In this document: positions 7,594-61,498 of the stretch, piece after piece
How the letters are laid out: the number at the start of each line of letters is the position of its first letter
How positions within the stretch are numbered: the stretch's first letter is position 1
Origin: an uncultured Candidatus Saccharibacteria bacterium
Lineage (GTDB): Bacteria > Patescibacteriota > Minisyncoccia > Phycocordibacterales > UBA9973
Assembly (NCBI GenBank): GCA_964646765.1
Contig: CAZYIA010000001.1
Location: 65,334-129,333 of the forward strand
Reading direction: 5' to 3'
DNA length: 64,000 bases
The notes under the pieces: model-generated
Database searches by the model: none
What the model was told of the DNA's origin: nothing
The model's input: only the letters and a program-made list of their open reading frames with translations
Made by a program: the position numbers and the translations under genes

Positions 7594-8376
7594 ATGTTTG
7601 GGAATTTCGGAGAAAAGCCTTCCCAGGAAGTTTCGAAGTCTACAGAAGAGCAGTTAGTGGCTTTTGCTCGCACACCATTGTCTGATACAGAAGTTTTGGC
7701 TGGTCTGGAACAAGCAGGTGCTTCTTCTATAAGTCAGTTGCCGACATTGTTTCAAAAAATGATTGGCACAGAACATCTATATCGCGTGCAGGGTGTTACG
7801 TTTGGTGATGTTGTAGAACATACCATGGTCTTTACCCTCAATAACCAAAAGACAAATACATCACACGCAGAACTTGAGTTTGAGCAAGATGTTGAGAATG
7901 GTGTTTGGAATATGCGCCATCGGTATGTAGCAACAAAAGAGCAAGGTCTGAGCGGCTCTGATTTTCTGAAGAAAGCCGAAGAATATTTTGCTATTCTTAA
8001 AAAACATCAAAAAGTTGATCTCCGAAAGTTTGTCGCGCACGCTTCTCAGCCAAGTGTTATGCTGTGGCTCGAAAAAAATGGTTTCAAGGAGTCAGGAGTG
8101 AATTTCAACCACTTGTTTGATTACGAGAAAGGAACAGTAATTCCAGCCCCAGGATATTTTTTTATTGAGCTCAAGGATCCGAAGGTTCCCATCGAAAAAG
8201 ATCCCTACTTGGTTAATGGTGATTTTTTACTTGACCCAGAGTTTGCCAAACTTCGTGAAGGACTATCATTTGATCTTGCTGATAAACGTCCATATCTTGA
8301 AAGCATTGAAGTACTCAATAGTCTGATTACAAAAGGCTATGTTCCGCGACTCTCCTACGAGAAAAATGTGCTATAG
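7594..8376 (+). CDS. Hypothetical protein, possible GNAT-fold acetyltransferase-like
   Basis: Central segment RHRYVATKEQGLSG...WLEKNGFKE resembles GNAT motifs A/B (degenerate); sits immediately upstream of leuS. Confidence 0.35.
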   Translation: MFGNFGEKPSQEVSKSTEEQLVAFARTPLSDTEVLAGLEQAGASSISQLPTLFQKMIGTEHLYRVQGVTFGDVVEHTMVFTLNNQKTNTSHAELEFEQDVENGVWNMRHRYVATKEQGLSGSDFLKKAEEYFAILKKHQKVDLRKFVAHASQPSVMLWLEKNGFKESGVNFNHLFDYEKGTVIPAPGYFFIELKDPKVPIEKDPYLVNGDFLLDPEFAKLREGLSFDLADKRPYLESIEVLNSLITKGYVPRLSYEKNVL

Positions 8377-8387: not shown

Positions 8388-11300
8388 ATGGCACAAAAAC
8401 CGAGTGAGTATAACCACCTCGCCATTGAGAAAAAATGGCAGAAAGAGTGGGAGAAAAAGAAAGTCTATAAAACTCTAGATCCCGGGAAAAAGAAAAAGCA
8501 TTACGTGCTTGATATGTTCCCGTATCCTTCTGGAGCCGGGCTTCATGTGGGCCATCCTCGTGGCTATATTGGCAGCGATGTATACGCGCGTTTGAAGCGC
8601 ATGCAAGGTTTTAACGTCCTTCATCCAATGGGCTACGATGCTTTTGGCCTCCCAGCTGAACAATTTGCCATTGCTAACAAAATTCACCCTCGCCAAGCCG
8701 TAGAAAAAAATGTCGCGACTTTTGAACGCCAACTTGGCATTATGGGCCTCTCGTATGATTGGTCGCGAAAAGTAAACACGACCGACCCCGCCTACTACAA
8801 ATGGACGCAGTGGATTTTTCTGAAACTCTACGGTGCTTGGTACGATACTGAAAAAAACAAAGCCCGACCAATAGAAGAACTGGTAAAAATTTTTGAAAAA
8901 AAGGGGAGTGCTGGAGTGAAAGCTGTAACTAATTATAGCGGCAGTTTTTCCGCAAGTGATTGGAAATCATTCTCAAAACTTGAACAACATAAGATTCTAA
9001 TGGAGTTTCGCTTAGCCTACGAAGGCTATAGCGATGTCAATTGGTCGCCATCAATGGGTACCGTACTTGCAAACGATGAAGTCCTAGATACTCCCAATGG
9101 TCCTGTGGCGGAACGTGACGGTAAGCCAGTAGAAAAAAAGCGTATGCGCCAGTGGTTTATGCGCATAACTTCTTATGCTGAGCGATTACTTGAAGGTTTA
9201 GATGGGCTTGATTGGAGCGAACATATAAAAGAAATACAGCGAAACTGGATTGGAAAAAGCGAGGGAAGCTTGCTCACCTTTTCACTGAGTACAAAAAGTG
9301 GTACGCAGCCGAAAAAGATTTTGGTTGGTACTCGAAATGAAGCAAAGTTCAAAATGGTAAAGGCTTGTTTGCCTAAGCTCTCGGGTATTGAAATCGTTAG
9401 CCTTAATGATATTGCCGCAGTTGATGATAGCGCCCTTGTTGAAGGATCAGACTATGAAGAAAATGCTCGAATGAAAGCCGAGTTTTACTTTAAGAAAACC
9501 GGCATTCCTACTATTTCAACCGATAATATTTTTTGGTTGGAAAAGTGGAAAAAGAACGATGGTGTGATGGTGCACATGCGCAAGGAAGCTAATCCGAAGA
9601 GTGATCGAGCAACAGATGAAGAAGTTGTTGCTTTCCTTAAAAAATGGGTAAAGAGTGTTGGTGGTAGCTCACGCGCGCATTTTCGTTATGCGGTTGCTTT
9701 TGCCGACACGCATGGCGTTCGAAGCTTTACTTCAAACCAGCGTGAGTATGTACTTCAAGGAAAACAGTCAAAGAAATTTTGGCCAGGATATCCAACTGAA
9801 TCATTACTTATTGATGTTGTGACTAAAGAGTATAAGGGTAGTCAAAAAGATTCTCTTCGCTATCAAAAACTAATTAAAGATTTTGCCCGTGAACTTCCAA
9901 TGTGGTTGGGGGAACTTTCACCAGTTTCAGTATTTACCACACGTGCGGATACTCTTGCCAGTGCTTTCGCAGTAATTCTCTCTCCTGAGCATCCTCTCGT
10001 AGCGAAACTACTCCCGCTTACTGAGAATGCTTTAGAGGTGAATGCGTATATACAAGAAGCAGGGAAGAAAACCGAAGAAGATCGCACAAATACTGAAAAA
10101 GAAAAAACGGGAGTGCCGCTCAAGGGGATTACAGCAACAAATCCATTAACCAAAGAAGTACTTCCAGTATGGGTTGCTGACTTCGTGCTCGCTCAGTATG
10201 GTACTGGAGCAATTTTTGCCGACATGCACGATGAACGCGACTTTATGTTTGCCCAGAAATATGGATTGCCAATGCGACAGTCAGTTGCTCCTCATTTTAT
10301 TGACCCGAGAAATCCACCACGACCGGGACTTCCCACAGTTGCTCGCCGCACAGTTCATGTCATTCTTCGCCGACCAAGTGATGATGCGTACTTAGTACTT
10401 AATTGGAAAGGTGATGTTTGGAAGGGTCAGAACCCACATACATTTATTGTTGGAGGAATTGAAGAAGGAGAAGATACTGTTCAATCAGCACAAAGAGAAG
10501 TTGTCGAAGAAACAGGCTACCAACATATTAGATATATCTCAACGATCGGTCCAGAAATACATGCTGAATTTTGTGCCGCGCACAAAAATGAAAACCGGTA
10601 TGCTACAACCCAAGTTCTTCTATTTGAATTAGTTGATGAAACTCAAGCCTCGGTAGCACAAGAAGAATTAGATAAACACGAGTATCTATGGCTTCCAAAA
10701 GCTGAAGTTGGAAATTATTTAAATATTTCTGAAGATACATTTATTTGGAAATGGTTTATCAGCGGACAGCAATCATTCACTGATGAAGGTATCCTGATTA
10801 ATTCAGGAGAATTTAATGGACTCAGTTCAGAAATTGCTCGCCACAAAATTACAGAAGCAGTTGGGGGATCGTGGGTAACTAAATACAAAATGCGTGACGC
10901 TGTGTTTGCTCGCCAGCGGTACTGGGGTGAACCAATTCCGCTCGTTCATAACGCCGACGGTACAATTACGCCAGTTCCAGAAAAGAAATTACCACTGACG
11001 CTGCCGAACGTTAAAAGTTATGAACCAACCGGTACTGGCGAGAGCCCTCTAGCAGCAGTTTCATCTTGGGTTAAAGGGGGATACGAAACAAACACTATGC
11101 CGGGTTGGGCGGGTAGTTCATGGTACTTCCTGCGCTACATGGATCCCAAAAACAGCAAAGCTTTTGCAAGTGATAAGGCGCTGAAATACTGGCGCGATGT
11201 TGATATGTATGTTGGCGGTGCTGAGCATGCTACGGGACACCTTCTCTATGCTCGGTTCTGGCATAAAGCGCTCTATGATTTAGGATACGTACCAACAACT

Positions 11301-12035
11301 GAACCATTTAAAGCACTTCGTAACCAGGGAATGATTGGCGGCGCTGATGGAAGAAAAATGAGTAAGCGATGGGGAAACGTGGTAAATCCGGATGATGTTG
11401 TGGCAACCTACGGTGCTGATTCACTGCGTGTTTTTGAGATGTTTTTGGGACCATTCGATTCACATTTGCCATGGTCAACAGAAGGGATTATTGGTTCCCG
11501 ACGATTTATTGAAAAAGTATGGCGATTATCTCAAAAAATAATTATTGCACGCGCAACGAGTACTGATGAAAGTGCGGAAAAAGTAATCCATAAAACAGTA
11601 AAGAAAGTAACCGAAGATATTGAGAGCTTTAGTTTTAATACCGCGGTCTCATCGATGATGATTTGTGTGAATGAACTTGAACGAGCGACACAGGTTTCAT
11701 TGAAAGATTTCTCTCTTCTCCTTCGAGTGCTTGCTCCGTTTGCTCCGCATATTACTGAAGAAATCTGGCAATTAGTAGTGAAAGAAAAGGGAAGCGTACA
11801 TCATGCGTCATGGCCAACCTACGATCCTAAGAAACTGGTTGAAGCCACGGTTACCATTGTTGTTTCGATAAACGGTAAACCACGAGCAGAAATTAGTGTA
11901 GAAACTGGGGCATCTCAAGAAATAGTGGAAAGTATCGCCCAAAATGATCCACGGATACAGACTCATCTGGCAGGTAAAAAAATAACTCGGGTTATTTACG
12001 TCCCAAATAAACTGGTCAATCTAGTCATAGTCTAG
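8388..12035 (+). CDS. leuS: Leucyl-tRNA synthetase with inserted Ham1/ITPase-like and NUDIX domains
   Basis: HVGHPRGY (HIGH), editing-domain TTRADT, KMSKR, and C-terminal VIYVPNKLVNLV all align to E. coli LeuRS. Two extra in-frame blocks (aa ~301-512 and ~636-800) bring the length to 1215 aa versus ~860. Confidence 0.95.
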   Translation: MAQKPSEYNHLAIEKKWQKEWEKKKVYKTLDPGKKKKHYVLDMFPYPSGAGLHVGHPRGYIGSDVYARLKRMQGFNVLHPMGYDAFGLPAEQFAIANKIHPRQAVEKNVATFERQLGIMGLSYDWSRKVNTTDPAYYKWTQWIFLKLYGAWYDTEKNKARPIEELVKIFEKKGSAGVKAVTNYSGSFSASDWKSFSKLEQHKILMEFRLAYEGYSDVNWSPSMGTVLANDEVLDTPNGPVAERDGKPVEKKRMRQWFMRITSYAERLLEGLDGLDWSEHIKEIQRNWIGKSEGSLLTFSLSTKSGTQPKKILVGTRNEAKFKMVKACLPKLSGIEIVSLNDIAAVDDSALVEGSDYEENARMKAEFYFKKTGIPTISTDNIFWLEKWKKNDGVMVHMRKEANPKSDRATDEEVVAFLKKWVKSVGGSSRAHFRYAVAFADTHGVRSFTSNQREYVLQGKQSKKFWPGYPTESLLIDVVTKEYKGSQKDSLRYQKLIKDFARELPMWLGELSPVSVFTTRADTLASAFAVILSPEHPLVAKLLPLTENALEVNAYIQEAGKKTEEDRTNTEKEKTGVPLKGITATNPLTKEVLPVWVADFVLAQYGTGAIFADMHDERDFMFAQKYGLPMRQSVAPHFIDPRNPPRPGLPTVARRTVHVILRRPSDDAYLVLNWKGDVWKGQNPHTFIVGGIEEGEDTVQSAQREVVEETGYQHIRYISTIGPEIHAEFCAAHKNENRYATTQVLLFELVDETQASVAQEELDKHEYLWLPKAEVGNYLNISEDTFIWKWFISGQQSFTDEGILINSGEFNGLSSEIARHKITEAVGGSWVTKYKMRDAVFARQRYWGEPIPLVHNADGTITPVPEKKLPLTLPNVKSYEPTGTGESPLAAVSSWVKGGYETNTMPGWAGSSWYFLRYMDPKNSKAFASDKALKYWRDVDMYVGGAEHATGHLLYARFWHKALYDLGYVPTTEPFKALRNQGMIGGADGRKMSKRWGNVVNPDDVVATYGADSLRVFEMFLGPFDSHLPWSTEGIIGSRRFIEKVWRLSQKIIIARATSTDESAEKVIHKTVKKVTEDIESFSFNTAVSSMMICVNELERATQVSLKDFSLLLRVLAPFAPHITEEIWQLVVKEKGSVHHASWPTYDPKKLVEATVTIVVSINGKPRAEISVETGASQEIVESIAQNDPRIQTHLAGKKITRVIYVPNKLVNLVIV

Positions 12036-12061
12036 GAGCTAGTGGTATACTTTGGCTATCT

Positions 12062-14422
12062 ATGAATAGTCAAAGTATGTCCGGAGACAATAGTCTGGGT
12101 CGAGCTGTTTTCTTTGATAAAGTTGCTGCAACCCTTTTCATTATCGTTGCAGCATTATCACCCTTATTCTTTATTCCATCACTTGGTCTACCCGTTGACC
12201 TCTCAAAAATTTACTTTTTGATTTTTGGAGTTTTACTAGTTTTTCTTAGTTGGATTATTGCTCGCCTTGTTGATGGGGCAATTACAGTTCCAAAGACACC
12301 AATTCTTCTTTCCGCCGTCATTGTTCCGGTAGCGTTTCTAGTATCTGCGCTATTTTCTCCAGCACCAGCAGTCTCTTTTGCGGGAACATCTTTTGGTATT
12401 GGTAGTGTGGCAGTGATCTTATTACTCACACTCTCGTTTCTAGGTAGTGTTCTCTACCTTAACTCGCCACATCGGGTATCTTTCTTCTTAAAAATTATTT
12501 TAGGAAGTACTTTGGTTATTGCGCTCTTTCAGATTACCTATTTGTTTTTTGGTTTAACCCACCTGCATTTTGGTACATTCTATTCAAACATTTCTAATCT
12601 TGTTGGTCGGTGGAATGATCTGGGTATCTTCTTTGGAGCTGTTGCTCTTGGATCCATTACACTTCTTGAGATCGCGGAGCTTTCGCGCATGAAACGAGTA
12701 GGTCTCTGGTTACTCTTCGTGCTCTCACTTTTTTTCCTCGCGTTGGTTAATTTCCCACTTCTTTGGGGTATTCTTGCGGCATTCTCAATCTTACTATTAG
12801 TGTACGCACTTACGGTTCTTCGGCCACGCAGAGAAGGATCCGCAATGCATTTTCCTGTCGCGGCTTTTGTTGCAGTTTTAGTTGCTCTGTTGTTTCTTAT
12901 TGCTAATCCAATTGTTGGAACTATCCTGCCACGATTTTTTGGTGTTTCGTCTGCTGAAGTACGACCTTCTATTGTTGCTACCGCTTCCGTGACATGGCAA
13001 TCACTCAAACAAAGTCCGATTGTTGGCGTTGGCCCTAATCGTTTTGAGAATGCTTGGCTTATGTATCGGCCAAACCAGGTTATCGCAACCGATTTTTGGG
13101 ATACTGGATTTACTTCTGGCTTTGGCTTAATCCCTTCATTTATTGCTACCACTGGAGTATTAGGAACTCTCGCTATTCTTGCATTCCTCCTTCTTTTCTT
13201 TATTGCAGGCATTTTGCACGTATTCCGTTCTCATGAAAATAAAGGAACTCAAACCCTGATGCTCCTTTCATTTATTCTGGCTACGTACGCTTGGATTGTA
13301 GCGCTTGCGTATAATCCCGGAATTGTGGGTGTCATGACCGCTTTCGTATTTTCGGGAATGTTCATTGGTTTATTGGGATATACGAAAGCTATTCCAGTAG
13401 TACGTCGTTCGTTCCTAGAAGATCCTCGAAAGAGCTTTTTCTCAATTTTGGCTCTTGTTGCCATTCTTATTCTGGCACTCGCAGCGCTCTTTATTGGTAC
13501 TGAGAAGTTTATTGCACTTTCTTCATATGCTCGTGGTGTTCAAGCACTTTCCAAAAACGATATGACATCTGCTGAAACACTATTAACACGCGCAGCAACA
13601 CTTAATCCGAGCGATCTCTATTACCGTGGTCTCGCGTCACTTCGTTTAGCGCAAATAAAAAAACTGGTCACTACTCCGAATGTCTCTCAAGATGTTCTCA
13701 AGCAAAATTTTCAAACGCTCTTTAGTGCTGCTGAGGGTGCCGCTCAAAACGCTGTTCACTACGATAAAACAAATCCGGCAAACTGGGTGGCTCTCGGGTC
13801 TCTCTATGAAAGCGTAGTACCGTTTGGTGTTTCTGGTGCATATACCAATGCAAAGCAGGCATACGAAGAGGCTCGAAAGCTTTCTCCTCAAAATCCTGGT
13901 TTTGATCTCTTGCGTGCGCAACTGGAAGTTGATAACAAGAATCTCGCTGATGCAAAAACATTTGCTGAACAGGCAATTGCCGCGAAAGCAAACTTTGTTT
14001 CTGGTTATATTCTCCTGGCACAAATTAATTCAGCCCTTGGTGATTCAGCTTCTGCAGAAGCAAATCTTGAGAAAGCAGTCATGGTTGCTCCAACTGACAC
14101 AAACGCTAATTTGGAGCTTGGCTTGTTTAAATTTAAAGCAAATGATTTCCAAGGAGCGATTCCGTCACTTGAGCGTGCTCTGTACCTCGATCGCTCATCG
14201 GCAACCGCTGCATACTTCCTCGGTCTTTCCTACGATAAAGTAGGCAGAACGACAGATGCGCTTGCTGTTTTCACCGCTCTCGAAAAGGCATTTCCAAATG
14301 ACACCGTTCTCCCTAAAATTGTTGCAAACTTACAGGCAGGGAAGAGCGCTCTCGATAGTTTAGTAGCAGCACCTGAACCGGTAAAAGCCGAAGAGGATAA
14401 AAAGACTACTACAAAAAAATAG
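12062..14422 (+). CDS. O-antigen ligase (Wzy_C)-like polytopic membrane protein with C-terminal TPR repeats
   Basis: ~12 TM helices in the N-terminal 480 aa, then TPR-like repeats (LGSLYE, ALYLD); an architecture common in CPR. Confidence 0.55.
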   Translation: MNSQSMSGDNSLGRAVFFDKVAATLFIIVAALSPLFFIPSLGLPVDLSKIYFLIFGVLLVFLSWIIARLVDGAITVPKTPILLSAVIVPVAFLVSALFSPAPAVSFAGTSFGIGSVAVILLLTLSFLGSVLYLNSPHRVSFFLKIILGSTLVIALFQITYLFFGLTHLHFGTFYSNISNLVGRWNDLGIFFGAVALGSITLLEIAELSRMKRVGLWLLFVLSLFFLALVNFPLLWGILAAFSILLLVYALTVLRPRREGSAMHFPVAAFVAVLVALLFLIANPIVGTILPRFFGVSSAEVRPSIVATASVTWQSLKQSPIVGVGPNRFENAWLMYRPNQVIATDFWDTGFTSGFGLIPSFIATTGVLGTLAILAFLLLFFIAGILHVFRSHENKGTQTLMLLSFILATYAWIVALAYNPGIVGVMTAFVFSGMFIGLLGYTKAIPVVRRSFLEDPRKSFFSILALVAILILALAALFIGTEKFIALSSYARGVQALSKNDMTSAETLLTRAATLNPSDLYYRGLASLRLAQIKKLVTTPNVSQDVLKQNFQTLFSAAEGAAQNAVHYDKTNPANWVALGSLYESVVPFGVSGAYTNAKQAYEEARKLSPQNPGFDLLRAQLEVDNKNLADAKTFAEQAIAAKANFVSGYILLAQINSALGDSASAEANLEKAVMVAPTDTNANLELGLFKFKANDFQGAIPSLERALYLDRSSATAAYFLGLSYDKVGRTTDALAVFTALEKAFPNDTVLPKIVANLQAGKSALDSLVAAPEPVKAEEDKKTTTKK

Positions 14423-14434
14423 TTCTGATTCATC

Positions 14435-16117
14435 ATGGTTAAGCGCCTCTTTTCGGTCATCACAAAACGGTACGGTGGTATTCATGAGGCAGCCATTTTG
14501 CTTGCCGTTTTCTCTATTCTTTCTCAAGTGCTTGGCCTTGTTCGTGATCGTCTATTAGTTCACTATATTGGCCCAGGACCAGTACTCGACGTCTATTACG
14601 CTGCCTTTAAAGTACCCGATCTCATTTTTGCCTTTGTTGGCTCTCTGGTTACGGTAACAGCAATTGTGCCTTTTGTTGTTGAGCGAATGAAAAAAGGCGG
14701 CATGGATAGTACTCGTGAGTTTATTGCTGAACTTACAACGGCTTTTATCGTTGTTATGGGGTTTGTGTTATTTACGGCATATGCGTTCATGCCACTTCTT
14801 GCAAACGTTGTAGCTCCTGGATTTACTGATGCCCAGCATCATCAACTAATCATGATTTCCCGAATCATGCTTATTTCACCGATGCTCTTTGGCCTCCAAA
14901 ACTTATTTGGCAGTATTAACCAAGTATTCAAAAAATTCTTCGTTTTTGCAGCTTCACCAGTACTTTATAACGTTGGAATTATTATTGGTATTCTTTTTCT
15001 TTTGCCACGGTATGGGTTGCTTGGTTTAGCATTCGGGGTTGTTATCGGTGCAGTACTCTATATTGTGGTGCAGCTTTTGAGTGCTCGAAGTCTAGGTTTT
15101 CCATTTAAACTCACTCTTTCACTTTCATATCGAGATTTGTATCGAGTAACTCGAACAGCACTTCCACGAGCACTCACATTTGGCATGAGTACTTTTGTTG
15201 TCTTTATCATGACTGGACTTGCATCCAAAATTGAATCCGGAAGTATTTCAATTATGACCTTTGCAATTAATATTCAAACTTTCCCAATTGGCTTTATCGG
15301 AAGTTCATATGCTATTGCTGCATTTCCGACAATGACCGAAGTGTGGGCAAAAGGGGAGAAGGAAAAATTTTTTGAGGTGATTCGTTCCAGTTGTCAACAA
15401 ATTCTTTTTTGGACGCTGCCGCTTACAGCATTGTTTATTGTTCTTCGAGCCCAAATTGTCCGTGTGATTTATGGCTCAAGTCAGCTTTCGTGGAATGACA
15501 CTAAACTTACCGCAGCTCTCTTTGCAATTCTGTGTATTGGTATCGCAGCTCAAAGCATGGTTCTTGTTTTTGTTCGTGCCTATTACGCTACAGGCAGTAC
15601 CCGAAAGCCGTTTTATCTAGCAATTCTCACTACAAGTTTTACGGTTATTTTTGCTCTTGTTTTTCTCTCACTTTTTCATGCGTTTCCAAAGTTTGAACTT
15701 GTTCTAGAGTATCTCTTACGTGTTTCTGGAGGGCATGGCACCGATATCTTGGCTCTTGGTTTTGGCTATCTTGCTGGTAATTTACTTTCTCTTACTCTTT
15801 TTCTTATTCTCTTTGCACGAGATTTTGGTCTCTCATTTCTTTCACCACTTTTGTCTACGTTTGCAAAAACTGGTGCAGCTTCAGTTGTTGCCGGTGTTGT
15901 AACCTACGGATCACTTCAATTACTCGGTGGACCACTTGAACTTTCAACCTTTTGGGGAATCCTTCTTGATGGTACGACCGCTGGCGCGGTAGGGACTCTT
16001 GCGGCGATCGCTTTTCTTGCCCTCGTGCGTTCGGAAGAGCTCTTTATTTTTGCTCGGGCTCTTCGCTCCAAGTTCTGGAAATCTGAGGTGGTTACTCCTG
16101 CGCCGGGGACCGAATAG
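14435..16117 (+). CDS. murJ: Lipid II flippase MurJ (MviN family)
   Basis: N-terminal LSQVLGLVRDRLL...YYAAFKVPDLIF pattern typical of MurJ/MviN; 14 TM helices. Confidence 0.85.
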   Translation: MVKRLFSVITKRYGGIHEAAILLAVFSILSQVLGLVRDRLLVHYIGPGPVLDVYYAAFKVPDLIFAFVGSLVTVTAIVPFVVERMKKGGMDSTREFIAELTTAFIVVMGFVLFTAYAFMPLLANVVAPGFTDAQHHQLIMISRIMLISPMLFGLQNLFGSINQVFKKFFVFAASPVLYNVGIIIGILFLLPRYGLLGLAFGVVIGAVLYIVVQLLSARSLGFPFKLTLSLSYRDLYRVTRTALPRALTFGMSTFVVFIMTGLASKIESGSISIMTFAINIQTFPIGFIGSSYAIAAFPTMTEVWAKGEKEKFFEVIRSSCQQILFWTLPLTALFIVLRAQIVRVIYGSSQLSWNDTKLTAALFAILCIGIAAQSMVLVFVRAYYATGSTRKPFYLAILTTSFTVIFALVFLSLFHAFPKFELVLEYLLRVSGGHGTDILALGFGYLAGNLLSLTLFLILFARDFGLSFLSPLLSTFAKTGAASVVAGVVTYGSLQLLGGPLELSTFWGILLDGTTAGAVGTLAAIAFLALVRSEELFIFARALRSKFWKSEVVTPAPGTE

Positions 16118-16186
16118 TCAATAAGCTTTCTCTTTAGGCGTTTTCTGCTAGTATACGAGGGAGCGGCGGAAACGCCCTCTTTTACT

Positions 16187-17992: not shown

Positions 17993-18017
17993 AAAACACC
18001 TCGAGAGGTGTTTTTTA
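17991..18017 (+). terminator. Rho-independent terminator after lepA
   Basis: Hairpin cacctcgagaggtg followed by tttttt. Confidence 0.7.
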
Positions 18018-18237
18018 GTGCTGTTATCGGAACAAGCTTGGCATGTAGAGGGCGATCATTGAGAGAATCACTAAGACTGAGATCATTCCCCAGATCATAC
18101 GCACCTTTTTTTGATTTTTTGGGTTAAAAAGCATATTGCAAAACGCGACGTAGTTCCGTATGCTACCCGAGTACAAGCTTTTATTGTACAAGTAACTTAC
18201 AGTTGGTCGATTAAGGATATGGAGCACTATACACCTC

Positions 18238-18633
18238 ATGGCACGGTTTGAAAAGGAGCGAAAAATTACTGATGTTCTCTATTCACGCATTGGTATTGTG
18301 GTACTTCTGGTTATTGCGGTACTGTTAGTGCTTTCGGTTATTTCGGTGTTTAGTAAGCGCAGAGAGGCTCGTAAAGAGGCAAAAGCAGCTGAAGCTCGAC
18401 TCGCTGACGTTACTAATCGAAAAGCAGAACTTTCTGCTGATATTGACCGCTTGACTACTCCAGCAGGGAAAGAAGAAGCACTTCGTGATCGTTATCGAGA
18501 GGCAAAACCAGGGGAAGGGCTTGTGGTCATCGTCGATAAGAATGAACAAGATTCCTCAGCTGAAGTTTCGAGTTCAGAAAGGGTGTCTTTTTTCCAAAAT
18601 CTGAGTCAGTTTTTTAAGAATCTTTTTCAGTAA
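18238..18633 (+). CDS. Septum formation initiator (FtsB/DivIC-like) protein
   Basis: Short cytoplasmic N-terminus, a single TM helix, then a coiled-coil region (EARLADVTNRKAELSADIDRL). Confidence 0.5.
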   Translation: MARFEKERKITDVLYSRIGIVVLLVIAVLLVLSVISVFSKRREARKEAKAAEARLADVTNRKAELSADIDRLTTPAGKEEALRDRYREAKPGEGLVVIVDKNEQDSSAEVSSSERVSFFQNLSQFFKNLFQ

Positions 18634-18637
18634 TTTT

Positions 18638-18708
18638 GCGGAATTAGTTTAGTGGTAGAACTAGTGCTTCCCAAGCATTGGGCGCGGGTTCGATTCCCGC
18701 ATTCCGCA
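18638..18708 (+). tRNA. tRNA-Gly (CCC)
   Basis: Cloverleaf folded by hand: acceptor GCGGAAT/ATTCCGC, anticodon loop TTCCCAA, T-arm GCGGG-TTCGATT-CCCGC; no encoded CCA. Confidence 0.85.
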
Positions 18709-18767
18709 CAGCTTGCGAAGCGAGTAGATTTAGTAACTTGTGACCAATTCTCTCTTTTTATTTTCAA

Positions 18768-19805
18768 ATGGAAACTAAACGCAAACGAAATTTTTTTATT
18801 CCTTACATTAAAGGATGGGCAATTATTTCAATCATGCTTATTCACTTGGTTGATTGGTCTAATATTCCTGTGAGTGGGATAGGAAGTGTATTAAAGGAAA
18901 TTCTGTATCCAGCAGTACTTTTTTTTATTGCCAACGCAGGAAGTGTTATTTACATTGCGTATAGTCATTATGAACTTCCAAAAGCAACAAAGAAGCTTTT
19001 TCGAAGAGGATTTGAACTCATCGGCATATATTTTTTATACAATGTAGTAAAACTTTTTATCTTTAATTTTAATCAAGAGCCATTCTACGGGAAATTTAAT
19101 CTTGCTATCCATGGGATAGAAAAAGTTTTAACTCTTCAAGCTTTTACAGTGCCTATAACTATCTTGTTTACCATAGGCTTACTTCTGCTTATTGCTCCGC
19201 TACTTCTCTATATTTCCAAAAGAAGTAGGTATCCAAAATTAACCATTATAGTTCTCCTAGTATCACTGTCTGTCGCTAATTGGCTTTTCCCGCATCCTTC
19301 AGATGTAATTAGTCACTTTATCTATTCGGAAAGCAACGTAACATTTCCGCTAGCACTATGGCTTGTGCCGTTTGTTCTTGGATTTTTGGTAGCTCAATTT
19401 GAATTTGAAAAATATGCCTGGCGTTTTCTGGGAGTCTTTGCTCTCGCCACACTCATTTCCATATTCTTTTTACCGCATGGTGTAAATTTTCTCCGACCTT
19501 CATGGAATATGTATCCACTAACCCTCTATTACGTCTTTCTCTCGTTTACTTTAATGTATGTGCTTATTCTTAAGTTTAAATGGTTAGAAAAAACAGAAGA
19601 GTTTACAAAAATCTTGGCGGTGATTCGTTTTTGGGGTGATAACACGCTCCCCATATATCTTTACCATTGGATTATCATTGATTGTACGTTGTGGATATTT
19701 GCTCCGTCTGCTTGGAGTATTCTGATTACAGTGCCAATATTCTTGGTCATATTTACATACTATAAACGAGCGACACTCACTCAGTACTTTAAGGGGGAGT
19801 TGTAG
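18768..19805 (+). CDS. Polytopic membrane protein, acyltransferase-3-like
   Basis: ~10 TM helices with a weak resemblance to the Acyl_transf_3 family; no definitive motif. Confidence 0.35.
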   Translation: METKRKRNFFIPYIKGWAIISIMLIHLVDWSNIPVSGIGSVLKEILYPAVLFFIANAGSVIYIAYSHYELPKATKKLFRRGFELIGIYFLYNVVKLFIFNFNQEPFYGKFNLAIHGIEKVLTLQAFTVPITILFTIGLLLLIAPLLLYISKRSRYPKLTIIVLLVSLSVANWLFPHPSDVISHFIYSESNVTFPLALWLVPFVLGFLVAQFEFEKYAWRFLGVFALATLISIFFLPHGVNFLRPSWNMYPLTLYYVFLSFTLMYVLILKFKWLEKTEEFTKILAVIRFWGDNTLPIYLYHWIIIDCTLWIFAPSAWSILITVPIFLVIFTYYKRATLTQYFKGEL

Positions 19806-19902
19806 TTTTGTATTAGACCATAGAGCGTCAATATAAACAGCTGTTGACGAGGGTGCTATACTTCAACTGTAGAAACCTATTATTAAGTAACGAGAGAAAG
19901 CT

Positions 19903-20142
19903 ATGAAAAAAGTCACAATTTACAGCACCCCATCCTGTCATTTCTGCCATATGGCGAAAGAGTTCTTTAAGGAAAAGGGAGTTCAGTACGAGGATGTTGA
20001 CGTTGCAGCCGACCAGGAAAAACGAGCCGAAATGGTAGATCTTACTGGCCAGCTTGGTGTTCCCGTTATCCGTATCGAAAATGACGTTATCATCGGCTTT
20101 AACAAGCCAAAGATTGCTGAACTATTAGGCATTGCTGCATAA
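19903..20142 (+). CDS. Glutaredoxin-like protein (NrdH/YruB type)
   Basis: 79 aa with a CHFC active site in a thioredoxin-fold context (YSTPSCHFCHMAKEFF...GVPVI). Confidence 0.75.
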   Translation: MKKVTIYSTPSCHFCHMAKEFFKEKGVQYEDVDVAADQEKRAEMVDLTGQLGVPVIRIENDVIIGFNKPKIAELLGIAA

Positions 20143-20256
20143 GGTGCCATCGGCGGGAAGCTCGACTACCGTCGCGGGTACTTTTCTCGTTTTGCTGCAA
20201 AACATAGAAAAGTCTTTCGATTCCCGCACGCGAAACAAACACTTGTTTCGCTCATG

Positions 20257-20328
20257 TGCCATCGGCGGGAATCGAACCTGCATCAGCCCGTTAGGAGTGG
20301 GCCGTTCTATCCATTGAACTACGACGGC
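20257..20328 (-). tRNA. tRNA-Arg (CCT), with A.C mismatches in the anticodon stem and T stem
   Basis: Reverse complement folds as GCCGTCG-TA-GTTC..GAAC-GCCCA-CTCCTAA-CGGGC-GCAGG-TTCGATT-CCCGC-CGATGGC-A and is homologous to E. coli argW; positions 31.39 and 50.62 are A.C. Confidence 0.55.
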
Positions 20329-20362
20329 AGTTGCGGGATTAGTGTATAACACCACCATAACA

Positions 20363-20390
20363 AAAACCACCTTTGAGGTGGTTTTTGTTT
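20363..20390. terminator. Hairpin terminator (bidirectional)
   Basis: aaaaaccacc-tttga-ggtggttttt with A and T runs on both sides. Confidence 0.5.
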
Positions 20391-20440
20391 GGGCCAGAAT
20401 CTCGGCTATACGTTGCTAATTCTGCTCACTGTCTCGGCAA

Positions 20441-20470
20441 TAAGAAAACCGGCTAAAGCCGGTTTTCTTT
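20441..20470. terminator. Hairpin terminator downstream of tRNA-Phe (bidirectional)
   Basis: aaaaccggc-taaa-gccggtttt followed by a T run. Confidence 0.5.
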
Positions 20471-20473
20471 ATG

Positions 20474-20546
20474 TGCCGAGACCCAGGGTCGAACTGGGGA
20501 CCTATCCCTCTTCAGGGGAGCGCTCTACCAACTGAGCTATCTCGGC
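20474..20546 (-). tRNA. tRNA-Phe (GAA)
   Basis: Reverse complement: perfect acceptor stem GCCGAGA/TCTCGGC, anticodon loop CTGAAGA, T-arm CCCAG-TTCGACC-CTGGG; 73 nt. Confidence 0.85.
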
Positions 20547-20618
20547 AAGAACAATAACGCTAGGCTATTGTACTTAAAATAGCGTTTTTTGCAATCGAAT
20601 ACTAACCGATGACAAAAG

Positions 20619-20891
20619 CTATTGTTTTGGCGTTGAGGAAGAAAAATTATTGAGCAGGGTAGTGAAGTTACCAAGCGCCCCACGGCTGTTATTGTAGAGA
20701 TCAGTAACTTGCTTAAGATATGGCTGAAGGAAGTAAAATGCCCCAACAGAAACACCAATAAGAATAATCCAGTATATAACTCGCATTACCGCTGCCCAAC
20801 GCTGAGCTCGGCGCATACTGCGGAGTATCTTATTATTCTCTCGAGTTAATTCCAGGAGCTCGTCCAGTTTTGGATTAGGACTTTGATCCAT
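20619..20891 (-). CDS. Small hypothetical membrane protein (90 aa, single TM)
   Basis: Charged N-terminus and one hydrophobic helix; sits upstream of tRNA-Phe on the same strand. Confidence 0.35.
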   Translation of the reverse strand: MDQSPNPKLDELLELTRENNKILRSMRRAQRWAAVMRVIYWIILIGVSVGAFYFLQPYLKQVTDLYNNSRGALGNFTTLLNNFSSSTPKQ

Positions 20892-20893
20892 AG

Positions 20894-21367
20894 TTAGATT
20901 GATTTTACTCTAAGTGATGTTTGCTTGCTCTTATCAATCTTTGGTAGACGAATCATAAGGAGCCCATGCTTTTCGATAGCCTCAGCATCTTCTGGTTCAA
21001 TTTCTGCTGGAAGGGAAATCGTGCGGGAGAACGTACCCCAAAAGAGTTCACGAGTGAAGTAGTCTTCATCATTTACAATTCGAGAAGGTTCGCGTTTTCC
21101 ACGAAGCGTGACCATATCACGCATAATATTAATTTGCAGGTCTTCTGGTTTTACGCCAGCAACCATGGTTTCGATGATGATATCATTCGGAGTCTGGTAT
21201 ACATCAACAGAAAGTTGTCCTTCTTCTGGCTCTTCAGAGGCCCAATGGGCACTCTCCTTATCTTTGCCTTTACCTTTTTTGTCATCGAGGTTGTCCTCAA
21301 AATCATCCTCTTGATCGAGGCGGACACTACCAGTAAGACGTTCAAAAAATGATCCTTTTTTTGCCAT
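20894..21367 (-). CDS. Hsp20/alpha-crystallin family small heat-shock protein
   Basis: Alpha-crystallin domain pattern (VDVYQT...IMRDMVTLRG...FSRTISLP) with an acidic, Lys-rich N-terminal extension. Confidence 0.8.
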   Translation of the reverse strand: MAKKGSFFERLTGSVRLDQEDDFEDNLDDKKGKGKDKESAHWASEEPEEGQLSVDVYQTPNDIIIETMVAGVKPEDLQINIMRDMVTLRGKREPSRIVNDEDYFTRELFWGTFSRTISLPAEIEPEDAEAIEKHGLLMIRLPKIDKSKQTSLRVKSI

Positions 21368-21380
21368 AGTGTGTTATTTT

Positions 21381-22127
21381 TTATTCCACCGTCTGAGTCT
21401 CGGGATATTTTTTTCTAAGCTCCTTAGTATAGGTAGCTTGACTCATACGACGGACTTTTTCAAATACAAGAATACTAATAATCGATACTACCCAGAGAAA
21501 GGCGAATACCTGTAAAAAGTTCTCGCCATCATGTTGCATTATAAAAAAGTTAAAAATGCTATGCAACCCAATCGCAAGCCCAAATCCGATTACCAGAGAG
21601 CCAAATCGCACCGATCTGCTTTGATAAAAAGATAGTCCCATCATAAGACCAATAAATCCAGTACAAACGCTATGGAGAAGAGTTGAACCTAGGAAGCGTA
21701 AGTTGGTGGTTAAAAGCGCCACAGTTGTTGCTTGACCAGCAAATGGTTTAATGAGGAAGAACGTATTTTCAAGAGCGGCAAAACCAAGTGCTGCCGTCAT
21801 GAGATAGATAGGAAAGTCGATTGGTTCACTAATCTGGGACGTTCTAAAAGCAATCAATGCGCAGGCTAAGTACTTCATCACTTCTTCTGATGCTGCCCAT
21901 ACAACAATAAGTGTTGTGTTATCAGAAAATTGATGGAGGAAAAATTGTTGGATAGGTAATACGGCAACAACCGCAAGCATGCCGGCTACGAAAGTAAGAG
22001 CAACTAAACCAAGCGGTTCGGGCTTGATATCATCCTCACTCATCCAGTAGTGTAGCCAAATAAACGAAGGGATGGTTCCCGCGATGAGAGCAAAGATAAC
22101 AGCGACAGGATTGTCGAAACTACTCAT
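21381..22127 (-). CDS. PrsW-family intramembrane glutamic protease
   Basis: Conserved motifs EEVMKY (EExxK), FAALEN, HSVCTG and HSIFNF spread across 7-8 TM helices. Confidence 0.7.
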   Translation of the reverse strand: MSSFDNPVAVIFALIAGTIPSFIWLHYWMSEDDIKPEPLGLVALTFVAGMLAVVAVLPIQQFFLHQFSDNTTLIVVWAASEEVMKYLACALIAFRTSQISEPIDFPIYLMTAALGFAALENTFFLIKPFAGQATTVALLTTNLRFLGSTLLHSVCTGFIGLMMGLSFYQSRSVRFGSLVIGFGLAIGLHSIFNFFIMQHDGENFLQVFAFLWVVSIISILVFEKVRRMSQATYTKELRKKYPETQTVE

Positions 22128-24828
22128 GAATTGGCCACGGAGAAACCATTAGTAAACGACCGTTTGATTCCGGTAACGTTTCCCAGATTGCTTCAGTTAC
22201 GAACGGCATCAGAGGGTGAAGCATTGTTGTAAGTTCTTTTAAAACAGTACGGAGCAGTTTCTTGCGAGACATTTTTTCAGCATCTGTTCCTTCAGCCAAA
22301 ATTTTCTTACTCTCTTCCAAAACTTCGTCGGCAAAACGATGCCAAGCAAATTGGTAGAGTTTTTCTGATACTAAGTGGAACTTATACGTTTCGTATTCAT
22401 TGGTAATTTCCTGTTTGAGAGTATTCCACTCGGTTGCAATAGCAGCATCCGCATCGGAGTATGCGACCGCCATATCTACACCGTCAGTATAGGTAAGAAC
22501 GAAGCGGGTGATATTCCAGAGTTTGTTGCAGAAATTTTTATAGCCTTTAATTTTATCGCGTGAAATCTTGATGTCAGTTCCTGGGGCAACACCAAATATA
22601 AGCGCCATTCGTCCAGCATCCGCACCGAATTCATTCGCAATATCGAGCGGATCCATCGCAGCATTGCCGAGCGATTTAGACATTTTCTCCCCCTTTTCTG
22701 TGCGGACAATGCCCGAGAGGTAGACGGTGTGGAAGGGAATAGTTTCAAGAGCATAGCCAGTCATGAGAATCATGCGGGCGACCCAGAAGAAGAGAATGTC
22801 CGGACCACACTGAAGCATGTCTGTTGGATGATAGATTTCGAGATCTTTGGTTTTGTCTGGCCAGCCAAGCGTGGAGAAGGTCCATGAACCAGATGAGAAC
22901 CAGGTGTCGAGAGTGTCAGGATCTTGCGTAAAGTTGTCTTCTGGAGGATTGATGGTCACAGTAAATTCATAGGTGGTGGCATTGCCCATACGCCATTTAT
23001 TTCTGAAAGCGATTAAGTCCGTCTCTCCATCCAATACTGCTTTCATCACAGAGGAAAAAGATTGGTGTCCAATAACAACAATGTCTCCGTCAGATTGATC
23101 ACTATAAATCAATTCCCATGCTTGTTTAGCCCGAGCTAAGAGTTCTTCTTTCGTTTCTCCAGTACCTGTTGTGAGAGTCGCAACTAGAAGGGGAATTTCA
23201 TTTCTAGCTTTACCTTCGAGATTTCCCGCACCTACCTCCCGGAATAGAGGAGAAATTTCAAACGGGGTTCCGATAGTTTTCTCTATAATTTCAGCCGTTT
23301 CTACCGCTCTTGGCAAATCAGAAGAGAAAATTTTTCCTATTTTTCTACCTACAAGTAGTTCAGCGGCTTTACGCGCTTGCTCCTTACCTTTTTCGGTAAG
23401 AGGATAATCACCCAATCCCGCATAAATATCAGACTGGTTTGCCGTTGATTCTCCGTGTCGTACGAAAATTATGTTTCGAGATTTCTGAAGATGAGGTTTA
23501 TTTTCCGTGTCATACCAAACAGGCACACGATGGCCGTACCAGATTTGTCGTGAAATGCACCAGTCGCGAAGGTTATCAATCCAATGGAAGTATGTCTTTT
23601 CAAAATATTCGGGAATAATTCGAATTGCGCTGCTTGCTACCGATTCGCGCATAAGATCTTTCAGCGTCTTGCCGCGGCCAGGGATTTCTTTGTTTACAGC
23701 TACGAACCACTGAAGTTTTGGCAACGGCTCAACAATGCCGCCAGTTCGTTCAGCAGTAGAAACATTTTGGTTGACCTCTTCTTCTTTTTCGAGCAGTCCT
23801 TCCTCACGAAGCCAGGAAACAATAGCTTCCCGAGCCTCGGTAGTTTTCTTGCCCAGTATCCGTTCGTCACCCACAATCATTTTGGCGTACTCATTAATAA
23901 CCTGAGGGCGAGGCAAGTTGTGCCGATCCGCAATTTCCCAGTCGGTCATTGAGTGGGCCGGAGTAACGCCGAGGGCGCCGGTACCGAAGTCTTTTTCTAC
24001 CGATTCGTCGGCAATAATTTTGATATGAATAGGTACGCCGCAGAAAACCGCGTCATATTCCTTACCGACAAATTCTTGATAGCGTGAGTCTTCTGGGTGG
24101 ACAGCTACTGCAGTGTCGCCAACTTTGGTTTCTGGTCGGGTCGTGGAAATAGAAATAGGGAAGTCCTTAGAATACTTAAAAGTGTAGAGCTTCGCTTTGC
24201 GCTCTTCGTATACGATTTCGTCATCGGCAATCGTGGTTTGGCCTTTTGGATCCCAGTTTACAATGCGATTGCCACGGTAAATGAGGCCGTCATCGTACAT
24301 CCGCTTAAACATGGTGTTTACCGCGCGGTTTCGCGTTGCATCAAGGGTAAACGCTTCACGGCTCCAGTCACACGAAGCACCCATTACTCTCGTTTGGCTA
24401 GCGATAGTGCGGCGACTTTCGGAAACAAAAGCATCAATGCGACGTAGTAATTCTTCGCGGCCAAGATCATGGCGGCTTTTGCCTTCTTTTTTATAAATTT
24501 CTTTTTCAACTTTGCTTTGTGTTGCGATAGCAGCATGATCAGTTCCGGGAAGCCAAAGTGTGCGGTGGCCGCGCATTCGCTTGAAACGAATCGCGATATC
24601 TTGAATAGTAAGACCGAGAGCATGACCCATATGGAGCACTCCCGTGGCATTCGGCGGCGGCATCATGATAGTATACGGTTTAGCATCCGGCTTCGTATAG
24701 CCTGCCTCGATACATTTTTCCGGATTAAAAAAACCGCTCTTTTCCCAGATGTCGTAAATTTCTTTTTCGTGCTCGTTGGAGTTGTAGGCTTTTAGCAGCT
24801 TTTCAGGCACGTGAGCAGGATTTTCCAT
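22120..24828 (-). CDS. valS: Valyl-tRNA synthetase with an inserted histidine-phosphatase (PGAM-like) domain; C-terminal coiled-coil absent
   Basis: PPPNATGVLHMGHAL (ValRS HIGH region), editing TTRPETKVGDTA, DWCISRQIWYGH, DTWFSS, and KMSKSLGN. About 200 extra residues (aa ~445-632) hold RHGE...SSDLPRAVETA...VIGHQ. Confidence 0.95.
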   Translation of the reverse strand: MENPAHVPEKLLKAYNSNEHEKEIYDIWEKSGFFNPEKCIEAGYTKPDAKPYTIMMPPPNATGVLHMGHALGLTIQDIAIRFKRMRGHRTLWLPGTDHAAIATQSKVEKEIYKKEGKSRHDLGREELLRRIDAFVSESRRTIASQTRVMGASCDWSREAFTLDATRNRAVNTMFKRMYDDGLIYRGNRIVNWDPKGQTTIADDEIVYEERKAKLYTFKYSKDFPISISTTRPETKVGDTAVAVHPEDSRYQEFVGKEYDAVFCGVPIHIKIIADESVEKDFGTGALGVTPAHSMTDWEIADRHNLPRPQVINEYAKMIVGDERILGKKTTEAREAIVSWLREEGLLEKEEEVNQNVSTAERTGGIVEPLPKLQWFVAVNKEIPGRGKTLKDLMRESVASSAIRIIPEYFEKTYFHWIDNLRDWCISRQIWYGHRVPVWYDTENKPHLQKSRNIIFVRHGESTANQSDIYAGLGDYPLTEKGKEQARKAAELLVGRKIGKIFSSDLPRAVETAEIIEKTIGTPFEISPLFREVGAGNLEGKARNEIPLLVATLTTGTGETKEELLARAKQAWELIYSDQSDGDIVVIGHQSFSSVMKAVLDGETDLIAFRNKWRMGNATTYEFTVTINPPEDNFTQDPDTLDTWFSSGSWTFSTLGWPDKTKDLEIYHPTDMLQCGPDILFFWVARMILMTGYALETIPFHTVYLSGIVRTEKGEKMSKSLGNAAMDPLDIANEFGADAGRMALIFGVAPGTDIKISRDKIKGYKNFCNKLWNITRFVLTYTDGVDMAVAYSDADAAIATEWNTLKQEITNEYETYKFHLVSEKLYQFAWHRFADEVLEESKKILAEGTDAEKMSRKKLLRTVLKELTTMLHPLMPFVTEAIWETLPESNGRLLMVSPWPIHE

Positions 24829-59636: not shown

Positions 59637-59647
59637 CTAGATACTTA

Positions 59648-59682
59648 AGAGCCGCTCCCGTAAGGGAGCGGCTCTTTCCTTT
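59648..59682 (+). terminator. Rho-independent terminator
   Basis: agagccgctccc-gtaa-gggagcggctct followed by ttcctttat. Confidence 0.7.
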
Positions 59683-59710
59683 ATATACTGCCTCGCGTTA
59701 TACTTTTCAC

Positions 59711-60163
59711 ATGAACCACAATCGCGGTTTTGTCGTTGGTATTATTCTTGCTGTCATTGCGCTGGTAATGATTCTTGCTCTCATGGGTTTTTTCCGGGCG
59801 GACGGTACCGTGTACGGTCTCTCATTTAAAGAAACATTGCATTTACCTTGCGGTTTAAAGGTCTATCAACCAAAACCAAAAAAGGTTGTAGTTTTTCCTC
59901 TGACTGTCAGAGGTTATGCAAATGGCTGTGGCTGGATTCCTGCACCAGATAATCGACTAGGTATTTTGGACATCGTAAGCGACGACGGTGTCTACTACGG
60001 TTCGTATATTCTCCGAGCAAAAGGGGATGTATCTAAACCCCCGTACTATTTTGAAGGCACTGTTGATCCGGAGATTCCATATTCAGCAAAGAATGGAACA
60101 TTTATCTTCACGCCTAATTTTCCGCAGGGAAAGACCGTAAAGATCCCGGTGCTTTTTCAATAG
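59711..60163 (+). CDS. Hypothetical membrane-anchored protein (Ig-like / Gmad2-like?)
   Basis: N-terminal TM anchor, then a ~120-aa beta-rich domain; weak resemblance only. Confidence 0.35.
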   Translation: MNHNRGFVVGIILAVIALVMILALMGFFRADGTVYGLSFKETLHLPCGLKVYQPKPKKVVVFPLTVRGYANGCGWIPAPDNRLGILDIVSDDGVYYGSYILRAKGDVSKPPYYFEGTVDPEIPYSAKNGTFIFTPNFPQGKTVKIPVLFQ

Positions 60164-61495: not shown

Positions 61496-61498
61496 TGT

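Follow-up and report, generated by a model that had tools for sequence, protein, structure and literature searches.

Hydrolase domains nested in the leucyl- and valyl-tRNA synthetases of a Patescibacteria genome

A stretch of 64,000 nucleotides (contig CAZYIA010000001.1, positions 65,334 to 129,333 of the forward strand; hereafter the window, in whose own numbering all positions are given) was analysed with regard to two class Ia aminoacyl-tRNA synthetase genes, leuS and valS. Their products, leucyl-tRNA synthetase (LeuRS) and valyl-tRNA synthetase (ValRS), carry whole extra domains, namely a Ham1-like and a Nudix domain in LeuRS and a histidine phosphatase domain in ValRS. These architectures had been proposed in an earlier note made from the sequence alone, and profile matches, motifs, coordinates and independent assemblies all agree with them. 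The interval in question extends from the start of a 1215-residue open reading frame (ORF; 8388-12035, plus strand) to the end of a 902-residue ORF (22120-24828, minus strand), each of which is one unbroken frame. An identical LeuRS was recovered from two independent read-set assemblies and an identical ValRS is present on three contigs, so neither gene is an assembly chimera. The gene lepA lies between both synthetase genes; the relatives of its product all come from metagenome-assembled genomes of Patescibacteria (Paceibacterota, Paceibacteria, Parcubacteria, Nomurabacteria and similar), with a top identity of 74-76%, and by sequence relationship the host genome is assigned to the Patescibacteria (candidate phyla radiation, CPR; Paceibacteria-like). 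The features of leuS were as follows, with residue numbers referring to LeuRS.

8388-12035, plus strand: leuS, bacterial-type leucyl-tRNA synthetase, 1215 residues (TIGR00396, 878 bits against a cutoff of 548)
8832-9002, plus strand: extra segment of 57 residues, residues 149-205 (gap between window residues 148/206 and Thermus thermophilus LeuRS residues 144/145)
9297-9923, plus strand: site A insert, residues 304-512, complete Ham1/ITPase-fold domain (Pfam 40 bits; structure model; Foldseek E 2e-10)
9924-10286, plus strand: core of the CP1 editing domain between both inserts, residues 513-633 (PF13603, E 2e-43; alignment to T. thermophilus LeuRS)
10287-10769, plus strand: site B insert, residues 634-794, Nudix domain in a later CP1 loop (Pfam NUDIX; alignment to T. 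thermophilus LeuRS)
10452-10520, plus strand: Nudix box GGIEEGEDTVQSAQREVVEETGY, residues 689-711 (exact fit to GX5EX7REUXEEXGU)
10911-10928, plus strand: RQRYWG motif, residues 842-847 (sequence and alignment)

The LeuRS host enzyme was identified by its score over the equivalog cutoff together with the HIGH/KMSKS signatures and the threonine-rich CP1 motif with its conserved Asp; HVGH at residue 53, KMSK at residue 990, the editing motif TTRADT at residue 517, GTGA and HDERD are all kept. The insertion points were mapped by alignment to the solved LeuRS of T. thermophilus (1H3N), to which the window LeuRS can be aligned in every core domain and motif (E 9e-170). Compared with that enzyme, the window LeuRS has about 209 and about 150 residues added in CP1, has lost the zinc ligands (no cysteines are left in the ZN-1 region) and has no leucine-specific domain (window residues 983 to 991 against T. 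thermophilus residues 577 to 638). The 57-residue segment at residues 149-205 is lineage-specific, with no identified domain.

Site A lies between T. thermophilus LeuRS residues 239 and 243, in the turn of the first CP1 beta-hairpin and just ahead of TTRADT (TTRxDT). The Ham1-like segment was weakly visible when the whole protein was scanned (NCBIfam RdgB models, E 5e-8 to 1e-6, under their cutoffs), and the isolated insert passed the Pfam model Ham1p_like (PF01725) with 40.2 bits (cutoff 22.5), a result shared by 13 of 14 homologous inserts. An AlphaFold model of the insert, built on 14 sequences, had a pLDDT (predicted local distance difference test) value of 89 and superposed on the solved ITPases 6WWD, RdgB (2Q16) and PH1917 over about 205 columns, with Foldseek E values down to 2e-10 and TM (template modelling) scores of 0.65-0.75. 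By the Pfam score and the ITPase fold, LeuRS residues 304-512 belong to the Ham1/ITPase family. The motifs GTRNEAK (residues 314-320), VEG, ENAxxK and TDN are present, with GYPxE replacing GYDP, and the phosphate and Mg residues (TxNxxK, E, ENAxxK and D) are invariant across 14 inserts; at 53-81% identity to the window insert, the domain changes as slowly as the synthetase core. Assignment as an RdgB/ITPA ortholog failed for this insert, since its scores were 27.8 against 145 with TIGR00042 and 32.6 against 234 with NF011397, and the canonical GYDP is replaced.

Site B lies between T. thermophilus LeuRS residues 362 and 375, about 48 residues upstream of RQRYWG. Pfam NUDIX matched the whole LeuRS at residues 653-774 (E 7e-10), and the insert alone scored 44.2 bits against the cutoff of 21.1 (PF00293, E 2e-11), which places it in the Nudix superfamily. 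The residues of the Nudix box, metal ligands included, are retained in 103-108 of 108 LeuRS inserts, in which a family-specific aromatic pair and a KxxNR motif follow at positions +17 to +26 after the box; the overall identity to the window insert is just 23-43%. LeuRS proteins bearing Nudix domains, about 1000 residues long, are common, and 113 of the best 120 LeuRS matches have a Pfam Nudix domain. Searched as one sequence, the Nudix insert matched no solved structure; with a profile of 14 insert sequences, the top solved matches were diadenosine tetraphosphate (Ap4A) hydrolases (1F3Y, E 1.4e-9; 3I7U, E 1e-7), the alignments covering mainly the Nudix box. This match may be taken as a lead, and only as a lead, to the substrate of the insert, and it is the sole hint bearing on the substrates suggested in the earlier note (adenylates, Ap4A or damaged nucleoside triphosphates). 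The features of valS are listed next, with residue numbers referring to ValRS.

22120-24828, minus strand: valS, valyl-tRNA synthetase, 902 residues (NF004349, 860 bits against 704; TIGR00422, 808 against 612)
22933-23508, minus strand: branch-1 histidine phosphatase insert, residues 441-632 (Pfam His_Phos_1; alignment to 1GAX)
23452-23460, minus strand: RHG motif including the nucleophile histidine, residues 457-459 (sequence and alignment)
23545-23562, minus strand: WCISRQ motif, residues 423-428, separated from the insert by 12 residues (IWYGHRVPVWYD)

The identity of ValRS rests on these scores and on the motifs HMGH at residue 66, KMSKS at residue 715 and TTRPET at residue 229, and its core domains and motifs align with the ValRS of T. 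thermophilus (1GAX, E 9e-158). Compared with the latter, the window enzyme has 192 residues in the place of 30, has lost the zinc ligands and stops after the anticodon-binding domain, the C-terminal coiled coil being absent (the 1GAX match ends at residue 706 of 862), as it likewise is from insert-less Patescibacteria ValRS of 720-745 residues. The insert substitutes for T. thermophilus residues 417-446, a zinc-knuckle hairpin of about 30 residues (from WxISRQ...PAWY to DTWFSS) which lies outside CP1, and in the window it is flanked by WCISRQ...PVWY and DTWFSS. In two ValRS homologs a CxxC is retained on either side of the insert, which puts the insertion at the tip of the zinc hairpin.

Pfam His_Phos_1 matched the whole ValRS at residues 453-622 (E 6e-33), and the insert alone gave 119 bits against the PF00300 cutoff of 21.7. 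The catalytic residues R457-H458, N, R (in PRAVETA), E (in REV) and H588 (in GHQ) are present, and the R-H...R...E...H set is retained in 26 of 26 aligned ValRS inserts, that of the window included; residues 441-632 belong to branch 1 of the histidine phosphatase superfamily. None of the specific equivalog models (CobC, dPGM, GpmB and PspA) was reached, the best being CobC (TIGR03162) with 78 bits against 163, and the nearest solved relatives are PhoE, TIGAR and CobC, with PhoE (1EBB, 1H2E) as the best at E 1e-9. The inserts are 27-56% identical to that of the window, and this similarity does not track the host core. When P0121-P0124 were set against P0129, P0130 and P0135, one group showed an identity to the window of 32-36% in the insert and 80-82% in the core, and the other group 56% in the insert and 69-73% in the core, so that at least two histidine phosphatase subtypes occupy one site, which suggests swapping or repeated independent insertion.

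The conservation of catalytic residues across dozens of homologs indicates that all three inserts are real, folded enzyme domains whose catalytic residues are under purifying selection, and not disordered expansions. Failed profile searches and disordered expansions were the outcomes which the earlier note had named as speaking against it; the inserted segments pass the profile searches and keep their catalytic residues. Each insert enters and leaves its host through one loop and thus forms a lobe of its own. The inserts had further been placed near the CP1 boundaries and the RQRYWG or WCISRQ segments, at equivalent positions in the two enzymes. The ValRS insert does follow WCISRQ, but it belongs to the zinc hairpin, which is not part of CP1, while both LeuRS inserts sit within loops of CP1; the structural positions differ. 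The place in LeuRS that corresponds to the ValRS site is the loop following RQRYWG-EPIPL, which is empty in the window and occupied in LeuRS of other Patescibacteria (P0013, P0088, P0099 and P0115); in P0088 it holds a second Nudix domain. An intein or self-splicing origin was considered and rejected, as no intein or Hint family was found among the Pfam matches of LeuRS or ValRS and each insert is an entire enzyme bordered by beta-strands of the host.

For the Ham1 module, its profile was searched against 1.84 billion representative proteins, and 10 matches were obtained at E<=1e-30. They comprise five LeuRS proteins or LeuRS fragments with the insert, three stand-alone proteins, an isolated fragment of Ham1 (P0245) and an N-terminal fragment of LeuRS that runs on into unrelated sequence (P0250). 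Ham1 is at site A in P0011 and P0243, LeuRS or fragments of it, and about 25 residues before site A, ahead of NWIGKS, in the LeuRS P0244 and the alike arranged fragment P0251; in the LeuRS P0248 a Ser_hydrolase-Ham1 tandem occupies site A. The possibility that P0248 is a split LeuRS beginning inside the insert was rejected, for the ORF extends upstream (L164, 4251-8015, 1254 residues) and the apparent start is a miscall. The stand-alone proteins are P0247 (205 residues), P0249 (204 residues) and the two-domain Ser_hydrolase-Ham1 protein P0246 (405 residues). Each of their genes directly precedes, in the same orientation, a leuS that has no insert, with gaps of 25, 11 and 40 bp, and the three represent separate 50%-identity clusters; P0252, a Ham1 relative at a greater distance (E 2e-23), is not encoded beside leuS. 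Adjacency in three clusters together with fusion at two LeuRS loops points to a functional link between Ham1 and LeuRS which loop tolerance alone cannot explain, and a specific, selected partnership of the Ham1 module with LeuRS is well supported. The same slot directly upstream of leuS is filled in the window by a 260-residue ORF (7594-8376, plus strand), which ends 11 bp before leuS in the same orientation and is without a Pfam match; in related loci it is more usually filled by a DUF5671 membrane protein, and in L093 the gene upstream of leuS may be NADAR/YbiA-like, as judged by eye only.

The distribution of the inserts was determined with lepA as the anchor, by which 160 related loci were sampled with no bias to insert-bearing genes. 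Among 33 LeuRS proteins from these loci, 20 had no insert, nine a Nudix domain only, three a site A insert only and one both; 52 of 53 ValRS proteins were plain and one had the histidine phosphatase. Where both genes were present (14 loci), ValRS was plain in every case, including those with LeuRS inserts. The insert modules of LeuRS and ValRS are thus mutually independent, and the single coordinated system proposed earlier was not borne out. Only one other contig carrying both insert-bearing genes was seen, a Joint Genome Institute (JGI) contig of 65.9 kb (P0002, P0134). The LeuRS core identity to the window was 70.2% for the insert-less P0061/L081, 69.5% for the Ham1-only L001, 68.6% for a Nudix-only protein and 70-71% for double-insert proteins, and since such close relatives are without them the synthetase does not need the inserts.

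Site A of LeuRS is also occupied in relatives by ASCH (L005), HAD (P0026), GNAT (P0118), an alpha/beta serine hydrolase (P0016) and unidentified domains (P0084), and by DUF559, a Vsr/restriction-endonuclease-like domain, either alone (L093) or behind Ser_hydrolase (L114; Pfam E 1e-34). Tandem Nudix domains were found in the LeuRS proteins P0043 and P0091 and HAD at a fourth LeuRS site in P0014, and Nudix, HAD and ASCH are each found at more than one LeuRS loop. The theme is therefore wider than phosphohydrolases, to which the earlier note had confined it. These data show that the inserts belong to a phylum-wide modular accessory set which is often gained, lost and swapped in a few permissive class Ia loops. 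The DUF559 nuclease-like domain at this insertion hot spot raises the question of past or present mobility of the cassettes, and nothing was seen to show mobility of the DUF559-type LeuRS cassettes. At third codon positions the GC content (GC3) was 23% in the Nudix insert, 31% in the histidine phosphatase insert and 33% in the Ham1 insert, against 35-47% in the flanking synthetase cores; these low values could reflect a foreign origin or different constraints.

A third gene had also been counted among the members of the hydrolase theme:

26722-27255, plus strand: ORF of 177 residues, possibly a degenerate Nudix-fold protein (weak evidence; single relative P0242)

This ORF has no family match of its own in Pfam or NCBIfam, and its sole relative in a collection of 5.8 billion sequences (P0242, 48% identity) barely passes Pfam NUDIX (25.4 against 21.1 bits). 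Its putative Nudix box is degenerate (A for the first E, K for R) and differs from that of P0242. The structure model made from the two sequences had a pLDDT of 44 and was unusable for a fold search, for which reason the Nudix status stays weak; the protein may be a decayed Nudix fold. Nothing ties it to the synthetases, and it is left aside as peripheral. A 177-residue protein of no assigned family is likewise encoded upstream of Ham1 on the JGI contig with P0247, and the likeness to the window ORF is one of length alone. The gene order on that contig is YchF ... 177-residue protein - Ham1 - leuS - sigma70/HARE-HTH - DUF8128 - YceG; in the window the counterparts are scattered (YchF at 3321-4322; sigma/HARE-HTH, a 431-residue ORF and YceG at 58605-62509), which suggests rearranged synteny.

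The remaining genes of the window are ordinary housekeeping genes (dTDP-sugar genes, YchF, Sua5, MurJ, LepA, Hsp20, PrsW, TsaD, MurA, FtsZ/A, MreB and others). No further synthetase genes were found in the 64-kb window, and the neighbourhood is uninformative on the function of the inserts. At 28576-30093 (minus strand) a MurA-like protein of 505 residues (EPSP_synthase at residues 79-491) has an N-terminal XRE-type helix-turn-helix domain (HTH_3, residues 15-65), an unusual fusion of a DNA-binding domain and a cell-wall enzyme. TsaD (27375-28607, minus strand) has 410 residues, and its match to the Pfam model is split in two, the better part beginning at residue 128 against profile position 49; this suggests an insertion of about 70-80 residues in the N-terminal part, and TsaD may be another expanded housekeeping protein of this genome.

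On balance, the probable explanation is that the window LeuRS and ValRS are intact synthetases carrying whole small-molecule hydrolases nested in exposed loops, where these would likely serve local nucleotide clean-up, a reading that we favour with considerable reserve. The inserts would most likely act as autonomous phosphohydrolases, present one to one with the synthetase and tethered to it, and would likely serve to clear unwanted nucleotide species locally, near a site that consumes ATP and forms adenylates. Candidate substrates would be non-canonical nucleoside triphosphates (NTPs) for Ham1, dinucleoside polyphosphates or NDP-X compounds for the Nudix domain and a phosphomonoester for the histidine phosphatase. 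Several points weigh against this explanation. With no canonical GYDP and with scores far under the RdgB equivalog cutoffs, ITP or XTP may not be the Ham1 substrate. The Ap4A hydrolase match of the Nudix profile rests mostly on the Nudix box itself, and LeuRS and ValRS are weak producers of Ap4A. Across 168 loci (2.4 Mb), neither leuS nor valS was found to have a stand-alone Nudix or histidine phosphatase gene of the insert type beside it; a histidine phosphatase gene that stands alone (L023) lies about 14 kb from valS. The earlier suggestion that the fusions were selected and not random is well supported for Ham1, through its adjacency to leuS and its presence in two loops, but the Nudix and histidine phosphatase domains are without such support from the neighbourhood. 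Finally, the presence of unrelated domains (GNAT, ASCH, DUF559) at one loop and their patchy spread fit hitch-hiking equally well, that is, the nesting of unrelated small enzymes in the few insertion-tolerant loops of class Ia synthetases, which are large, essential and highly expressed, for co-expression or stable inheritance in streamlined genomes, with no role in aminoacylation.

Such hitch-hiking is unlikely as the whole account, but it deserves serious consideration. It would explain why site A varies among relatives in what it hosts (Ham1, ASCH, HAD, GNAT, Ser_hydrolase, DUF559 or unknown domains), why inserts come and go between close relatives, whose synthetases function with no insert, and why LeuRS and ValRS inserts do not co-occur in the lepA-anchored loci; other housekeeping genes of the window also look fused or expanded (the HTH-MurA fusion and the long TsaD), and fusion and swapping of domains in CPR synthetases were noted earlier (PMC5370408). 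Tolerance alone has difficulty, however, with the three stand-alone genes of the Ham1 subfamily being operon-like neighbours of leuS, with Ham1 being inserted at two LeuRS loops and with the repeated specific association of Nudix, HAD and ASCH with more than one loop of LeuRS. The inserts could instead be regulatory sensors, in which catalysis is secondary and the binding of nucleotides or phospho-metabolites modulates aminoacylation or editing allosterically. The position of the LeuRS inserts on CP1, which in bacterial LeuRS rotates between the aminoacylation and editing states, and that of the ValRS insert beside the second half of the Rossmann fold would suit such a role, but the near-complete conservation of metal ligands and nucleophile argues for turnover and not for binding alone, and close relatives lack the inserts with no compensating features, so that this account is regarded as very improbable. 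Non-functional expansions, or artefacts of assembly or annotation, are effectively refuted. Patescibacteria proteins often have lineage-specific expansions, and the GC3 of the Nudix and histidine phosphatase inserts is below that of the host genes; against this stand the significant profile matches, the confident Ham1 fold, the catalytic residues conserved in dozens of homologs and the unbroken ORFs in independent assemblies.

A broader proposal, which is considered quite unlikely, is that the class Ia synthetases of Patescibacteria, LeuRS above all, may be docking hubs for a swappable guild of enzymes that modify small molecules (ITPase-like, Nudix, Ser-hydrolase, GNAT, HAD and histidine phosphatase), encoded directly upstream or nested; the guild would destroy adenylate-type by-products or aminoacyl-nucleotide toxins where they act, as a so far unrecognised layer of on-enzyme metabolite proofreading or antibiotic immunity. 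Decidedly unlikely, when taken as the explanation by itself, is on-target immunity, by which the nested or adjacent enzymes would destroy or modify antibiotics mimicking aminoacyl-adenylates, or toxic nucleotide analogues, at the synthetase. The known immunity enzymes against aminoacyl-nucleotide inhibitors are the GNAT MccE2, the serine peptidase MccF and the phosphoramidase MccH, and the leucyl-adenylate mimic TM84 targets LeuRS (PMC8323819). The analogy of the nested and adjacent domains to these enzymes is a functional one only. The patchy presence, the swapping of subtypes at one site and the low insert GC3 form a defence-like pattern, and the Nudix and histidine phosphatase domains diverge fast and yet keep their catalytic residues. 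Ham1, by contrast, is as conserved as the core, unlike a gene in an arms race; no inhibitor is known for these organisms, and the idea is entirely inferential.

The extra domains of eukaryotic aminoacyl-tRNA synthetases are well known, and these additions are mostly non-catalytic and confer new roles. The bacterial LeuRS and ValRS described here carry complete hydrolases with conserved active sites in the editing domain and the catalytic core, and such inserts are common across a phylum of ultra-small bacteria; in the case of the Ham1-like domain, gene order and fusion alike connect it with LeuRS, which is the classic mark of functional partners. Should the substrates of the hydrolases prove to be synthetase by-products, non-canonical nucleotides or toxins that mimic adenylates, the translation machinery would contain a new kind of quality control or defence. 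As passengers only, the hydrolases would still provide a rich natural catalogue of where class Ia synthetases tolerate insertions, and would illustrate the packaging of accessory enzymes in streamlined genomes. In the literature searched, no paper describing a LeuRS-Nudix, LeuRS-Ham1 or ValRS-histidine phosphatase protein was found, nor was a curated model, in agreement with the earlier view that the architectures are undescribed. The AARS Online paper has no mention of hydrolase inserts in LeuRS or ValRS, and a paper on CPR synthetases reports only OB-fold fusions and considers that CPR bacteria may diversify proteins via domain fusion (PMC5370408). The proteins are already in public databases with automatic domain calls, one under the JGI product name "leucyl-tRNA synthetase/ASCH/NUDIX".

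Several known systems can be compared with these proteins. The Ham1 insert resembles the house-cleaning NTP pyrophosphatases RdgB/ITPA (Ham1) in its whole fold and in the TxNxxK, E, ENAxxK and D motifs; it differs in being 12-21% identical to the solved ITPases, in having GYPxE for GYDP and a subfamily-specific HMRKE motif, and in belonging to a subfamily whose domain is nested in, or encoded beside, LeuRS. The Nudix insert, whose profile has its best solved matches in the Nudix Ap4A hydrolases of lupin (1F3Y) and Aquifex (3I7U), has a perfect box and conserved aromatics 17-18 positions after it, but the match is short and driven by the box, and the KxxNR of the insert is not a known Ap4A signature. 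The ValRS insert has the full R-H-N-R-E-H set of branch-1 histidine phosphatases of the PhoE/CobC/TIGAR type, from which it is set apart by scores under every NCBIfam equivalog cutoff, by its nesting in ValRS and by the at least two divergent subtypes at one site. As to the architecture as a whole, IleRS with GNAT (NCBIfam NF040702, ileS_w_GNAT) is likewise an essential class Ia synthetase bearing an unrelated catalytic domain, and its curated model means that such forms have been catalogued; the domains in the window are instead Ham1, Nudix and histidine phosphatase, nested in CP1 loops or the zinc hairpin, with two in one LeuRS. The SI3 insertion (bioRxiv 10.1101/2021.01.27.428476) is likewise a whole domain that is restricted to a lineage and lodged in a loop with a function in an essential enzyme, the trigger loop of RNA polymerase; inserts of the SI3 type are non-catalytic beta-sandwich modules, whereas those of the window LeuRS and ValRS are complete enzymes with conserved active sites.

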